Shown here piece after piece: positions 459 through 62,984 of a stretch of 64,000 nucleotides of DNA (positions are counted from its first letter, which is position 1; every line of letters begins with the position of its first letter). The stretch comes from Eledone cirrhosa (Eukaryota). The translations under genes were made by a program, and so were the position numbers. The stretch covers positions 150,474,001 through 150,538,000 of the forward strand of contig OZ024741.1 of NCBI GenBank assembly GCA_964016885.1. The letters are read 5' to 3'. A model generated the notes under the pieces. The model had not been told where the DNA came from and ran no database searches. It saw only the letters and a program-made list of their open reading frames with translations.

Positions 459-1078
459 CTTTCTCTCAGCAATAGTATAATACTGCAAACTTACTTAAAA
501 TGTTTCTAATAAATGTCTTTAAACTTTGAATCCATCTTGTATTCACGGCTACTGCTGCTTCTTCCCCAAACTCAATACTTCTCTTTATCTCTCACTTCTG
601 CTACTACTGCTACTGCACTCACACATTTCTCCACGACCAGTAAAATCGTTATATATATATAAAATCGTTGCGAATAGAAATATATAGGTGGCACTGGAGT
701 AAAAGGCTGACCAAACAAAACAAAATGTTTTCATCCAATATATATATTCATGATATTTCATGTAAACTATACAATCTTATAAATATACCCCCCACACATC
801 TACACACATACCCCCACCCCATATATATAAGCGATGGCATAAGTTGCGACCATCATTAATATATATATATATATATATATATATATATATATATATATAT
901 ATATATATATATATATATATATATATATATATATTAGAAAGTGAGGTTTTTTTTACAAAATGAAAAATAACCGAGGTGTCCTACACGAGTGGAAGTATAA
1001 AGAAAAAGGGATGAAATCGAAAATGCAACTGAAGTCTTATTTTTTTTTTTTTTATTAAAAATATATATTTATTTGGTT

Positions 1079-1116
1079 CCTTTACCGGTTTCGCAGTTCT
1101 TCTGCTTTTCAAAAGG
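1079..1116 (-). ncRNA. Type-I hammerhead ribozyme motif, U3:A8 core (mirror copy)
   Basis: Reverse complement of 1171-1208. Confidence 0.75.
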
Positions 1117-1170
1117 TGAGTTGAGATGGAGGGTCTGTGGTTTTTCTCACAGACCCTCCATCTCAACTCA

Positions 1171-1208
1171 CCTTTTGAAAAGCAGAAGAACTGCGAAACC
1201 GGTAAAGG
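1171..1208 (+). ncRNA. Type-I hammerhead ribozyme motif, U3:A8 core
   Basis: cctt-TTGAAAA-gcag(aagaa)ctgc-GAAA-ccgg-TA-aagg: stem I cctt/aagg, stem II gcag/ctgc, palindromic stem III ACCGGT, GUA triplet. Confidence 0.75.
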
Positions 1209-1639
1209 AACCAAATAAATATATATTTTTAATAAAAAAAAAAAAAAAAAAAAAAAATAAGACTTCAGTTGCATTTTCAGATTTCATCCCTTTTTCTTTA
1301 TATATATATATATATATATATATATATATATATATATATATATATAAAAACAAATAACGAAACGAAATTAAATTTCGTTTCATTTGTAACTCACTTTTGT
1401 ATGACTGACGCTTAAACAATTAAGTTAAAGATGTACATCCATATATGTATACTGAAATACTAGTATGTATATGAATACACACACGTATACATATGTAGAT
1501 GTACCAAGTTTTTTCACTGGTCACTTTACTGTGAGTGGCCAGCTATTCTGTATGTAAACACACAGACAAACCGGTTTTTAGAGTCATACTGGTTTTTGAG
1601 GAAACACCTTTCCTCTATTCTTCAGAAAGCCAGACAAGG

Positions 1640-1684
1640 AATATTGAACTAGTTTCGTTGTTGTTACAACTCATCAGCAATATT
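1640..1684 (-). ncRNA. Minimal type-I hammerhead (inverted unit)
   Basis: Reverse complement of 2030-2074. Confidence 0.85.
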
Positions 1685-2029
1685 TACCTATCTTCCGGCC
1701 TCTCTAGAGAATCGTAAAAGCACATATCGTTATATGCTTTTTCTATGAAAATTAGTAGTGGGCAGACCAATTTGCATAGAGTGTGAGTAAGTACCGGTTC
1801 AACGGAGACGATAAAAACAAATAACGAAACGAAATTAAATTTCGTTTCATTTGTAACTCACTTTTGTATGACTGACGCTTAAACAATTAAGTTAAAGATG
1901 TACATATAACGATATGTGCTTTTACGATTCTCTAGAGAGGCCGGAAGATAACATATAACAATTAAGTTAAAGATGTACATATAACGATATGTGCTTTTAC
2001 GATTCTCTAGAGAGGCCGGAAGATAGGTA

Positions 2030-2074
2030 AATATTGCTGATGAGTTGTAACAACAACGAAACTAGTTCAATATT
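2030..2074 (+). ncRNA. Minimal type-I hammerhead, unit 1
   Basis: aatattg-CTGATGA-gttg(taacaa)caac-GAAA-cta-GTT-caatatt: 7-bp stem I, palindromic ACTAGT stem III. Confidence 0.88.
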
Positions 2075-59070: not shown

Positions 59071-59348
59071 TAATACAAGGACGAATGGTTACTCCATCAT
59101 TACGTCTATTGGTTGGCGACGCGCGTTTCGCTACGGATCAGCTCAAGGTTCGATCTATATCAATCTAGCTCGACTCTGGAATCAGAAACTCGTCGAACCT
59201 CTGACATCACTACAACAGAAGTCCGACGAGCTACTGATTCCAGAGTCAGGCAGGATCGATATAGATTGAGCCTAGAGCTGATTAGTAGCGAAACGCGCGT
59301 CACTAATCAATAAACGTAATTATGGAGTAACCATTCGTCCTTGTATTA
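59071..59348. mobile_element. Fold-back element after (TA)n
   Basis: taatacaaggacgaatggttactccat ... atggagtaaccattcgtccttgtatta; arms ~130 bp, centre ~59208. Confidence 0.78.
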
Positions 59349-59506
59349 TTACAGTAACTCCATGTTGCACTTCCTGGATATATATATATATATATATATA
59401 TATATATATATATATATATATAAGTTATTCCGGGTTGAATCGGGGCTTCCTGGTGATTTCTCACGAATGAAACAGTTCTAGTCCTGTAGAAGCTTTTCTA
59501 TATTAA

Positions 59507-59702
59507 AACACACACACACACACACACACACACACACACACACACACACACACACACACACACACACACACACACACACACACACACACACACACACACA
59601 CACACACACACACACACACACACACACACACACACACACACACACACACACACACACACACACACACACACACACACACACACACACACACACACACACA
59701 CA
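59507..59702. repeat. Pure (CA)n microsatellite
   Basis: Direct reading. Confidence 0.95.
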
Positions 59703-61735
59703 TATATATATGTATATATATGAATTTTGTAGGTAGAAAAGTGGCAGTGATTATAAAGATTCATTTCATCTGGTTGCGTCCTGTGGAGACGGTAGATTGT
59801 AGAAAATAGATTTCTGCATTCTACATTCATTCTGAATACTGAGTGTTTGAATGTCTTAAACACTATGATATGTTTCATATATATATATATATATATATAT
59901 ATATATAGTAATAGTAATAAATTTGAAGACTATGATCCAAAGATATGGATAAATATATATCAAATATATAAGAACCGTAGAGCAAATATTTAAATATTTA
60001 TTAAAATAACAGATTAAAGTTTAAGCAAAGAATTGCTGCTTTCACCCTTAACGGGATCTTCTGAAACTAACAAAGTCAATCTGTGAACGCAGAAGTGAAT
60101 ATTTCAAAAAACGTTGCAACGGGAGGAAGACAGGAAGACGATACTTTGGTTCGTGGAAACGTTCTCTGGCAAAGAACGGGAAAAAACGAATATAATACGT
60201 CATTATTTGGAGCGGTGAAAAACAATTACACGCAAAGACAAAACCACGTTTATGGTATAAAAGAAGTCGTAGATGAATATTCTATTAGGTGGTTCATAAT
60301 ATATATATATATATATATACATATATATATATATATATATATATATATATATATATATATATATATATATATATATATATATATATATATATATATATAT
60401 AAATACATTATCGGAGAAAGCTAATAGCGATACTATATATATATATATTTATATATATATAGGAAATGACTAAACAGAGGTAAAAAGTCTTATTAGTTTC
60501 ACGCTTTATATGGAAAAGGGGAAACAAAGTTCAACGTGTCGGCCTTTAGTCCTTTTTCAGGACTACAAAAATAGAGACAGAATCACAGATACAGAAAATA
60601 AAAGGTAGTCCAAGTATAAAAAAAAACGAACATCTCTATATAAAGATATCAACCTCATTGCACCAGCTTAGCTGCTGATCGAACTTCGAATATGCTGTAC
60701 TATTGTATTACTATCTCCTAGACCTAATGATTAATTGATTAATTTAATTTGACAATTCCATTGATTGGTTAATTATTTAAGTTTGTTTAATAACGGTCAG
60801 GTTGAGTGCTTAATTCGGTTTGTGTATGGAATTTTTTCCATTGACCACCAGAAACCGGGGTTACCTCCCTTGGGAGTAACATGTGCTCCACACCGGGTTT
60901 TGCGTTAGAACGAAAGCCTGTTGAGAAAGTAAAATTCCACTGTTCGATCTTCCAGAAATCTAACTTGTATACACCACAAGCGGATTTTGTTGATTTTGGA
61001 TTTACAGAAACCTCACTTGGATATTCAGTAATTTCGAAGTTACGGTCGAGGTATGTTATATATACAGATGTATGTATGTATGTATGTATGTATGTATGTA
61101 TGTATGTATGTATGTATGTATGTATGTATGTATGTATGTATGTATGTATGTATGTATGTATGTATGTATATGTGTGTGTGTATGTGTGCGTGTGTGTATT
61201 TCCTTTTCTCACTAGTCGGTTCTTTCGTTGCTACAGATCACGCGGCTGAATTAGCGGTCGCTATTTTCAATTTGCAAGCCCTTTAAACTGTATGTTATTA
61301 CTCTGAGAACTATTCCTTGTCGAGTGCTTGGCTGCACTACTGAAGGCATTCGTTAGCTTGGCTGCTGATCGAACTTCGAATATGCTGTACTATTGTATAT
61401 ATATATATTTGTATATATATATACATACATATATATACGTATACACACACACACACACACACACACACACACACACACACACACACACACACACACACAC
61501 ACACACACATATATATATATATATATATATATATATATATATATACATATATATCTATCTATATATCTATATATATGTCTATATATATATATATATATAT
61601 ATATATATATATATATATATATATATATATATATATATATATACATATATATCTATCTATATATCTATATATATATATATATATGTCTATATATATATAT
61701 ATATATATATATATATATATATATATATATATATA

Positions 61736-62110
61736 AAACTAAAAACATTAGTGTCTGCAGTTCTGTCCACATGCCAACACAAGAGCAAGAATGAAGGTTT
61801 CATTCTACTGACATGGCTTTAAAAATGAGGCTTGTTTTTATAATTGCTGATCAGTGGATCTGCTAATATGCAGATCTGACTGATCAGCCAGTCTGCTAAT
61901 ATGCAAATCAGGCCGATCAGTCACTGTTTATTTTAGAAAATAGCATATATTTTCACTAGCTCTGACAGTTGGCAGGTGAACAGTCAGCTGTACTGATGAA
62001 AGGTGATACCCAGAAACCTTAGTGTCTGCAGTTCTGTTTACATGCCAACACAAGAGCAAGTATGAAGGGTTAATTCTACTGACATGGCTTTAAAAATATG
62101 GCTTGTTTGC
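61736..62110 (+). mobile_element. ~271-bp-unit element (1.3 units) after (TA)n
   Basis: tagtgtctgcagttctg..catggctttaaaaat at 61749 and 62020. Confidence 0.7.
61986..62033 (+). ncRNA. Hammerhead motif
   Basis: agctgta-CTGATGA-aaggt(gat)accca-GAAA-ccttagt-GTC-tgcagtt; 7-bp stem I, weak stem II. Confidence 0.62.
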
Positions 62111-62740
62111 ATGATTACAAACGAATCAAATGTTATTAATAATATTCGAAAAACTCAAGCCGTTTCGACGGCTATTTCTGGACTCTACTACCCTAAGTGT
62201 TGAGTATTCTGGTGCGTTATGGTCCATCTGGTTCCTTACCACAACTCCTTCGTTATATATATATATATATGTATGTATGTATATATGTATGCATGTATGC
62301 ATGCATGCATACTTAGATACACGCATACACGCATATATATATATATATATATATATATATATATGTACACACATATATATATATATATACATTTACATAT
62401 AAGAGCCTCCTCCACTATATATATATATATATATATATATATATATATATATATATATATATATATATATATATATATATATATACATATATATATACAT
62501 ATATATATACATATATATATACATATATATATACATATATATATACATATATATATATATATATATATATATATATATATATATATATATATATATATAT
62601 ATATATACACATATATATACGAAAACCCACTTCAATAAAGTCCTTTTACAATATTAAAACCAAGCGAAAACAAACATGTATAAAGACTCACATTAATCCC
62701 CTATAATTTAATGAGCTGAAGGTATAGATTCCAGGCTCTT

Positions 62741-62984
62741 TATAAATCAGTATATGTAGAGAAGTTCACATAGATGTATGTGTTTAATCATAGGAAAGGT
62801 GAATACAGATCAATTAAAAGAATAAATTAAAGTGTACTTACCATCCTATAATAACTATTACACCTGGACATGCTGAAATTAGAGTATGTTTCGCCACAAA
62901 AAGTGAAGATTACATATATATTGTAGAGGGCTATGATTAAACATATGAATTCTGTGTGAACTTCTCTCTATATACCGATTTATA
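62741..62984. repeat. Diverged inverted repeat ending in (TA)n
   Basis: tataaatcagtatat..agagaagttcaca..tgtttaatcatag versus ctatgattaaacat..tgtgaacttctct..tataccgatttata. Confidence 0.65.

Follow-up and report, generated by a model that had tools for sequence, protein, structure and literature searches.

Typical PLE insertions carry an inverted, 5'-truncated copy placed head-to-head, partial tandems, a tail at one end and palindromes at the junctions, and lie in AT-rich or (TA)n targets, as described in passages on Adineta vaga Penelope (PMC3846280) and in PMC8557442 (Fig. 2 and related passages). The latter passages define the Hydra clade by features that include a CxCx5C linker, CxxC/CxH motifs in the EN and a hammerhead; nearly all of its families insert in (TA)n. 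The origin of the tandem and inverted structures and of the one-sided tails was stated there to be open, and it has been partly answered in vitro. Anole Poseidon PAc cleaves and extends both strands, accepts uncleaved RNA as a substrate and uses two start sites, located downstream of the hammerhead, which delimit the tail (PMC11167929). Hammerhead tandem repeats are known non-autonomous derivatives of PLEs, and dependence on PLEs has been proposed for metazoan non-LTR retrozymes (PMC7229834; bioRxiv 10.64898/2026.07.22.740005). A word search of the main-text portions of these two reports returned no description of inverted arms or tails. Among the literature matches listed, judged by title and start of abstract, none dealt with Penelope twin priming or inversion or with non-autonomous hammerhead palindromes, and the structure is not described in the passages of an octopus repeat paper (PMC13282606).

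We analysed a window of 64,000 nt from Eledone cirrhosa (GCA_964016885.1, OZ024741.1, 150,474,001-150,538,000, forward strand); all positions are relative to this window. An initial annotation had named ten loci (L1 to L10) as inverted partial copies accompanied by direct copies. Inverted arms were confirmed at all ten (39-559 nt, 0-14.5% substitutions), far above chance. The terminal inverted repeat exceeded all 200 shuffles of the segment in 11 of the 43 segments between blocks of at least seven TA units, and ten of these 11 were L1 to L10, each flush (within 1 nt) with the microsatellite at one end. Length-matched random segments gave 35 flush matches out of 1290, and most of the 15 listed among these overlapped L1 to L10 or other repeats. 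Direct copies or partial tandems, an optional feature of PLE insertions, were found only at L2, L6, L7 and L8, with non-coding monomers of 317, 467 and 557 nt and a local GC content of 29-39%. L7 and L8 belong to a single family (81% identical). As no ORF with RT and GIY-YIG domains was found inside L1 to L10, these loci are non-autonomous. Several inserts had been delimited too short because the tail at one end of every locus was overlooked: L1 begins at 935, L4 begins at 28062, L9 extends to 59377 and L10 may begin at 62608-62622. Two further inserts missed previously, L7b and a mini-insert at 37367, were added (strand in brackets where assigned).

935-999 (-): L1 putative tail, 65 nt, single copy in the window
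1000-1139 (-): L1 inverted arm, hammerhead with U3-A8 core at 1083-1112
1140-1147: L1 loop, 8 nt
1148-1298 (+): L1 sense arm, hammerhead at 1175-1204, flush with (TA)n
1347-1905 (-): L2 inverted arm, 559 nt including a 68-nt tail (1347-1414), hammerhead at 1647-1677
1882-2025: L2 inversion junction, 3-nt microhomology, junction itself duplicated with a 75-nt period
1978-3700 (+): L2 tandem, 3.7 copies of a 467-nt hammerhead monomer, flush end at 3700
25387-25648 (-): L3 tail (25387-25452, about 50 nt homologous to a copy at 53544-53685) and inverted arm, hammerhead at 25489-25518
25888-26088 (+): L3 sense arm, hammerhead at 26018-26047, flush end
28062-28467: L4, 41-nt putative tail, arms joined as a zero-loop palindrome near 28250, right arm containing a 74-nt patch from 26493-26574
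29991-30416: L5, 18-nt putative tail, arms at 30009-30131 and 30286-30415, U3-A8 hammerhead at 30296-30325 (+), left-arm counterpart disrupted by a deletion
31181-31889: L6, long arm at 31181-31855 with a 557-nt period and an 85-nt tail at left; flush inverted arm at 31851-31889 (39 nt), joining the long arm at a natural 5-nt mini-palindrome
37367-37455: mini-insert, 65-nt minus arm and 25-nt plus arm, the latter corresponding to the tail at the end of the 59908-60298 family; mapped positions of the two arms separated by 51 nt, not a palindrome
39396-39878 (-): L7 tail-bearing inverted arm, monomer 90 to 317 to 254, hammerhead at 39573-39603
39875-40405 (+): L7 flush arm, 1.7 copies of a 317-nt monomer, hammerheads at 39922-39952 and 40239-40269
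41074-41165: L7b, 90-nt insert of the L7/L8 family, flush arm monomer 170-212, tail arm monomer 200-250
55177-55525 (-): L8 flush inverted arm, monomer 187 to 317 to 212, hammerhead at 55311-55347
55521-55853 (+): L8 tail-bearing arm, monomer 241 to 317 to 252, hammerhead at 55645-55681, tail at 55816-55853
59073-59377: L9, arms at 59073-59203 and 59216-59346, 12-nt loop, 31-nt putative tail at right
62608-62980: L10, the weakest locus, arms at 62745-62793 and 62931-62980, left overhang of up to 137 nt (tail or unrelated DNA), start possibly near 62608-62622

An old inverted pair at 56118-56479 was not counted (flush at neither end, no scoring hammerhead), and a long inverted pair at 8734-9308/11860-12410 was rejected as two separate LINE copies. 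The window also holds a genuine TIR element with an 8-bp target duplication, which looks unlike L1 to L10.

All ten loci were asymmetric, with one end flush with (TA)n and an additional tail at the other (18-137 nt; 31-41 nt at four loci). None of the 43 segments was flush at both ends. Any target-site duplication would be masked within (TA)n. The tail consists of element sequence at five of the ten loci, at L7b and at 37367: it recurs in the tandem unit at L2, L6, L7 and L8, and a second copy exists for L3. The tails at L1, L4, L5, L9 and L10 are putative. We refer to the proximal flush-end site on the element RNA as F and to the distal tail-end site as T. Throughout the L7/L8/L7b family, F lies at monomer position 212-214 and T at 250-254 and the inner ends vary; each insert pairs one F end with one T end. 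F is located 41-232 nt downstream of the hammerhead. At nine of the ten loci, the flush end and the target have alternating TA in common (sum 42, with 13.0 as the mean of the null; P=5e-5, or P=2.5e-4 when L8 is excluded). Microhomology at the inner junctions was not significant (8 nt over five junctions versus 3.8, P=0.067), in a script that gave 0 to the diverged junctions of L8 and 37367 and left out L7b and loci without a reference; a 4-nt overlap can be seen by eye at the L8 junction.

Using a scorer written after the motifs had been seen, type I hammerheads were detectable at six of the ten loci (five families), all pointing outward. In agreement with the initial annotation, every motif exceeding the null was on the minus strand in left arms and on the plus strand in right arms (both arms at L1, L2, L3, L7 and L8, right arm only at L5). 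No inward-pointing motif above the 99th percentile of the null was found at the ten loci. Polarity could be scored at only these six because L4, L6 and L10 had no detected hammerhead and L9 only the 3' half. The random arm polarity that had been proposed as a refutation was not seen, all five scorable families being outward. The 3' ends had also been described as running into (TA)n; they face outward at the six testable loci. The right flank of L4 is (AC)n first and then (TA)n. The proposed non-autonomous hammerhead families are likewise supported, with L7 and L8 counting as one. Inversion is not universal, since seven motifs scoring at least 20 occurred in a non-inverted context among 18 hand-picked other segments. 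A complete type I hammerhead in every one of two or more tandem units was seen only at L2 (four motifs) and in the L7 right arm (two motifs), and the remaining loci are monomeric or partial in hammerhead units. Of the 11 pairs compared between the L7 and L8 hammerheads, four show covariation on both sides. An Rfam scan of the 64 kb at gathering score returned 0 matches; sub-gathering HH9 matches at L2 and L7 agreed with the hammerhead polarity, and L3 had no match even below this score. E-value Rfam scans mostly matched microsatellites or hairpins to miRNA models and were rejected as composition artefacts. A MAFFT alignment of 11 hammerheads misplaced stem II, making it unsuitable for a covariance model.

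Three PLE ORF relics share the arrays with the non-coding inserts; a long-stem-II hammerhead lies downstream of one of them.

28651-28917 (+): third PLE endonuclease fragment, immediately following (TA)n; E 2e-4, a weak match
37488-38933 (+): PLE ORF relic 1, broken and 5'-truncated, with the RT 3' part, CxCx5C linker and GIY-YIG EN; Hydra-clade motifs
48662-50075 (+): PLE ORF relic 2, broken and 5'-truncated; Hydra-clade motifs
51185-51303 (+): long-stem-II hammerhead downstream of relic 2, next TA run 104 nt further

The relic translations contain the CxCx5C linker and the CxxC and CxH motifs around the EN E and N, and no internal CCHH cysteines. The RWK and DKT motifs are present in the homologue P0001 (31-34% identical), the relics themselves being 5'-truncated. 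Pfam recognised neither long fragment, and the long relics were assigned as PLE through one homologue (1 match among 510 candidates). The 3' ends of the small families had been expected to match autonomous PLE pLTRs. No such homology was detected in this window when the flanking sequences of both long relics were compared; apart from a nested SINE-like repeat and some short AT-rich words, the small families had no similarity to them at the 3' ends.

The window inserts share the features of a typical PLE insertion, and the PLE-type origin proposed initially is supported; the published signature of PLEs likewise combines a (TA)n bias and a tail confined to one end with a partial tandem and an inverted copy truncated at its 5' end (passages of PMC3846280 and PMC8557442). 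The window inserts differ in having no ORF, in their length (90-2350 nt), in their tails (18-137 nt as opposed to 30-40 nt) and in that some arms do not overlap. Like metazoan non-LTR retrozymes (PMC7229834; bioRxiv 10.64898/2026.07.22.740005), they have non-coding AT-rich monomers (here 317 and 467 nt), and each tandem unit holds a type I hammerhead; unlike these, they show no pLTR homology to an autonomous PLE in the window, and their self-cleavage and circular RNAs are putative. Hammerheads of Schistosoma mansoni PLEs also form opposite-strand pairs 100-700 bp apart, with the U3-A8 core variant and a palindromic helix III; the ends, tails and targets mapped here are not mapped in the passages of that paper (PMC4209133). 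The relics share CxCx5C, CxxC/CxH at the EN E and N, a hammerhead and (TA)n insertion with Hydra-clade PLEs (passages of PMC8557442), but are broken, 5'-truncated, assigned by motifs and without a 3' end in common with the small families.

Mobilisation of these loci by PLEs is very probable. Our main reading, to which we assign a probability of about 0.6, is that they are insertions of short non-coding type I hammerhead RNAs (non-LTR retrozymes and pLTR remnants) moved in trans by (TA)n-targeting PLEs, with priming from both target ends as the mechanism. Judging from the relic motifs, the partner probably belongs to the Hydra clade. The architecture is not new, and what the window adds is mechanistic: the inequality of the ends is a hint that copying begins from both cut DNA strands, and non-nested arms are found at four family-mapped inserts, two of them newly found. 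These arms, in one case non-overlapping, speak less for simple fold-back than for a model in which both target strands prime, at two fixed sites of the RNA. The initial annotation had left these two routes open; tail asymmetry and arm maps tip the balance, by a modest degree of confidence, towards two-ended priming. The PLE endonuclease would nick both strands of (TA)n. Of the two 3'-OH ends, each of which would prime reverse transcription of the element RNA, one would start at T, keeping the tail, and the other at the UA-rich F site 18-137 nt upstream, producing the flush end. Both cDNAs would extend towards the RNA 5' end through uncleaved hammerheads, passing beyond one monomer on circular or multimeric RNA, and joining of their 3' ends would give a head-to-head insert with its 3' ends outward. 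We infer the coupling of the two primings and the joining step. In L1 twin priming, two target nicks likewise prime on the RNA and generate an inversion. There the second site varies in position and lies far upstream, and the 3' end is not duplicated in the arms, whereas in the window the second site is fixed near the 3' end and most arms overlap. For a PLE, cutting and extension of both strands have been observed in vitro, together with two start sites (PMC11167929). In that anole system, however, the start lacks homology to the cleaved DNA, and the two strands have their start sites in common, whereas here F matches (TA)n and each insert is strictly F plus T, which counts against the two-ended model.

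A single priming event could also be considered, in which the cDNA, folded back, serves as its own template as far as a TA-rich site annealing to the other target end. It would explain more simply the tight centres (0-12 nt loops) at L1, L4, L6 and L9. The turn of L6 at a natural 5-nt inverted micro-repeat and the arms without substitutions at the young loci L1, L2 and L6 also speak for it, and self-priming has been proposed for Adineta Penelope (passages of PMC3846280). Fold-back requires one arm to lie inside the other, and this fails at L7 (arms 0.7% diverged), L8, L7b and 37367. Moreover, the flush arm is the longer one at L2 (1723 nt versus 559 nt for the tail arm) and the tailed arm is the longer one at L6, so that no fixed first strand fits both. 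Deletions at the centre of palindromes could produce non-nested arms afterwards; if asymmetric, they could have blurred the nesting, and with this addition we regard fold-back as unlikely, though the strongest of the alternatives. Trimming, in which both arms first end alike and the PLE endonuclease cuts one of them at an internal TA-rich site during resolution, would account for the single tail per insert and for the TA-rich F sites expected of an AT-preferring endonuclease; 'EN-mediated resolution' has been suggested (passages of PMC8557442). The in vitro tail, however, lies between two reverse-transcription start sites (PMC11167929), and trimming alone gives no non-overlapping arms such as those at 37367. 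We consider it improbable.

The palindromic shape, the TA flanks and the involvement of 11 of 43 inter-TA segments could also suggest a DNA-level origin, as MITEs of TA-targeting transposons or as inverted duplications from repair of fragile (TA)n cruciforms. This explanation is largely refuted: the termini are never symmetric, the hammerheads are conserved and polarised, the flanks are not mirrored and the true TIR element in the window looks different. Arm lengths differ ten-fold within one family, and insert lengths at L7, L8 and L7b are 1010, 677 and 90 nt, in line with the initial view that these are not MITEs. Fold-back chimeras arising from reads or assembly are the least credible source. 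The absence of substitutions at L1, L2 and L6 would fit them, but the arms differ by 4-14.5% at L3, L5, L8, L9 and L10, DNA past (TA)n is unmirrored at all ten loci and family-specific end positions recur.

Tentatively, and with less confidence than in two-ended priming itself, PLE integration may be obligate asymmetric twin priming: one RNP would nick both (TA)n strands and prime a single RNA at T and at F, one time each, and dozens of unrelated hammerhead RNAs would exploit the Hydra-clade enzyme through structure, not shared sequence. Every two-armed insert would then have exactly one tail, palindromes, partial tandems and non-overlapping inversions would be outcomes of cDNA run length, and one genome would offer thousands of natural read-outs of the mechanism.

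Collectively, we regard these loci as new members of a known PLE insertion type that provide a testable mechanistic lead. Such small non-autonomous inserts are numerous, fully assembled and mappable by family, and genome-wide counts of F/T pairing and arm nesting could discriminate two-ended priming from fold-back without new experiments. In practice, the inserts occupy 7474 of the 64,000 nt, and about 12% of the window would need annotation as retroelements, not MITEs. Animal retrozymes would be tied to the PLE machinery by their insertion footprint instead of by sequence trees.

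Inverted arms were present at all ten loci for which the initial annotation proposed them (arms of 39-559 nt with 0-14.5% substitutions). All 43 segments lying between (TA)≥7 blocks were scanned without bias, with 200 shuffles per segment, and in 11 of them a terminal inverted repeat exceeded every shuffle. Ten of these were L1 to L10, each having one end flush with the microsatellite; flush inverted repeats occurred in 35/1290 random control segments. The DNA outside the flanking microsatellites showed no mirror symmetry at any of the ten loci, and read chimeras were rejected as a general cause because the flanks are not mirrored and the arms have diverged. 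The inverted-arm structure is real, recurring and well explained. The direct copies also proposed inside (TA)n were found at L2, L6, L7 and L8 only (4/10).

Inverted inserts at the coordinates of the initial annotation, with the extension of the tailed end past the equivalent of the flush end
L1, 996-1302: 65 nt
L2, 1345-3700: 68 nt
L3, 25385-26089: 66 nt
L4, 28100-28470: 41 nt
L5, 29990-30412: 18 nt
L6, 31178-31890: 85 nt
L7, 39396-40410: 41 nt
L8, 55171-55853: 38 nt
L9, 59071-59348: 31 nt
L10, 62741-62984: 137 nt

An asymmetry overlooked in the initial annotation was found at every locus (10/10): one arm stops 0-1 nt from the microsatellite (end F) and the opposite arm extends further (end T). 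The tail corresponds to element sequence at L2, L6, L7 and L8, where it recurs within the tandem unit, and at L3, where it is found again in a second copy; the extensions at L1, L4, L5, L9 and L10 are putative tails. None of the 43 segments was flush at both ends. No locus qualifies as a MITE, in agreement with the initial annotation. L7 and L8 belong to one family (81% identical) with a 90-nt third member, L7b (41074-41165); all three share F (monomer position 212-214) and T (250-254), and their inner ends vary. Alternating TA was common to the F site and the target at 9/10 loci (sum 42 versus a null of 13.0, P=5e-5). An old inverted pair at 56118-56479, between TA/AC runs with neither end flush, is possibly a decayed insert of the same kind. 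A 74-nt patch (28296-28369) is present in the right arm of L4 but not in the left; it shares 90% identity with 26493-26574 in the adjacent element and reads as a templated insertion or template switch.

No Rfam match reached the gathering score in the window. Below it, the hammerhead model HH9 matched L2 (37.7 bits, E 6e-6) and L7 (31.1 bits, E 8e-4), with left-arm matches on the minus strand and right-arm matches on the plus strand; the model was weak at L8 (E 1.9) and gave no match at L3. With our own descriptor, composed once the motifs had been seen (null of 426 windows: 99th percentile 18.5, maximum 22.5), outward-reading arms of L1, L2, L3, L7 and L8 and the right arm of L5 scored 21-31.5, and inward readings 18.5 or less. 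The proposed polarity, left minus and right plus, held in all five independent scorable families (1/32 if polarity were random). L9 retained the 3' half of a hammerhead only; the descriptor found none at L4, L6 and L10. L1, L5, L7 and L8 have a U3-A8 core, a covariant reported from Schistosoma PLEs (Penelope-like elements; PMC4209133). Between the L7 and L8 hammerheads 11/11 pairs were kept, 4 of them altered on both sides, with only 3 distinct rows compared. Among 18 segments picked by hand, seven further motifs scored at least 20 outside any inverted structure, a count that allowed a wider stem II than the null did; two-armed inserts therefore make up only about half of hammerhead inserts. 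A non-inverted, hammerhead-bearing element at 26134-28039 (-) has purine-rich 68-nt repeats, a partial duplication of ~670 nt and no long ORF. Hammerheads at 29689-29800 and 51185-51303 have very long stem II inserts (~90-110 nt) and a well-paired stem I.

Two mechanisms had been offered, priming from both target ends and fold-back. Fold-back of a single cDNA requires one arm to sit within the other. At L7 the tail arm maps to monomer positions 90-317-254 and the flush arm to 1-317-214 (0.7% diverged); the corresponding maps are 241-317-252 versus 187-317-212 at L8 and 200-250 versus 170-212 at L7b, and none is nested. At 37367-37455, a flush arm of 65 nt is joined to one of 25 nt, which is the terminal tail of the 59908-60298 family in reverse; these arms map 51 nt apart, and 56/42266 control 22-mers score equally well. 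Priming twice, at F and at T, with one event on each target strand, would account for these non-nested arms, for 37367-37455 and for the reversal of arm length: at L2 the flush arm is the longer, at L6 the tailed arm.

We give two-ended priming a probability of about 0.55. Tight hairpin centres at four loci speak against it and favour fold-back, which we nevertheless consider unlikely given the non-nested arms. Palindrome centre deletions could remove nesting, most of all in the older L7b and 37367-37455, and also weigh against two-ended priming, as does junction microhomology that is not significant (P=0.067). In favour of two-ended priming, an anole PLE is described as cleaving and extending both strands, with two start sites delimiting the tail and uncleaved RNA as the template; its start site, described there as neither target-homologous nor strand-specific, is a further point against (PMC11167929). 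A bolder and tentative reading is that asymmetric twin priming on a single RNA is obligate, and endonuclease trimming of one end seems quite improbable.

The arrays that hold these inserts also contain three PLE ORF relics:
37488-38933, long relic
48662-50075, long relic
28651-28917, relic

The two long relics are 31-34% identical to P0001. The relics carry the CxCx5C linker and C-terminal CxxC/CxH, traits of the Hydra clade, in which almost all families are described as inserted in (TA)n (PMC8557442, section 11). A hammerhead follows the second relic, 104 nt ahead of a TA run. From these sequence traits, a Hydra-type PLE is the likely partner of the small families. The expected match of their 3' ends to an autonomous PLE did not materialise: no 3'-end similarity to the two long relics was found in the window, which counts against a direct link.

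The window is AT-rich repeat DNA of animal type (GC 24-41%) with 101 (TA)≥5 runs and LINE-type RT fragments; no host gene was recognised in it. At 25364-31908, at least 8 successive inserts are stacked with only TA/AC runs between them, which suggests repeated insertion into one growing microsatellite. Other features include:
20733-24548, degenerate, very AT-rich satellite, 11-12 nt subunits, higher period ~590 nt, internal inversion near 23255-23630
43468-52459, DNA-transposon-type element of ~9 kb, presumably hAT-like, with nested LINE and PLE insertions, 14-bp terminal inverted repeats (43476-43489, 52438-52451) and an 8-bp target duplication
19329-19953 and 54194-54822, two diverged fragments of non-LTR RT that are oppositely oriented and share 77% identity across 380 nt, which we take to be RTE-like

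LINEs of the non-LTR type, with RT and a restriction-like endonuclease motif at the C-terminus, are inserted in (TACA)n runs and are presumably R4/Dong-like; 12502-15885 and 44723-48115 are 96% identical:
5248-9308 (+)
11860-12410 (-)
12502-15885 (-)
16814-17223
18433-19144
44723-48115 (-)

A dispersed SINE-like family (~190 nt, both orientations, 87-93% identical) comprises, besides shorter copies:
30765-30955
35097-35289
40643-40831
42952-43141
50757-50940

The loci behave as PLE insertions and are further examples of an already described structure, which combines a 5'-truncated copy in inverted orientation with partial tandem repeats, a one-sided tail of 30-40 bp and a (TA)n bias (PMC8557442, PMC3846280). 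Head-to-head polarity was noted and self-priming proposed in PMC3846280, and opposite-strand hammerhead pairs spaced 100-700 bp are reported in Schistosoma (PMC4209133). Hammerhead tandem repeats have been presented as non-LTR retrozymes (PMC7229834) and as non-autonomous PLE derivatives (bioRxiv 10.64898/2026.07.22.740005); by word search, the main text of neither paper describes inverted arms or tails. Among titles and abstract openings, with subscription literature thinly covered, no study mapping F/T pairing in non-autonomous copies surfaced. By sequence criteria L2 and L7 qualify as retrozymes (non-coding elements whose tandem units each bear a type I hammerhead); the other loci are best called PLE-type non-coding inserts. 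With a strict rule of one flush and one tailed end, and with arms that are not nested, a genome-wide test of PLE integration becomes feasible.
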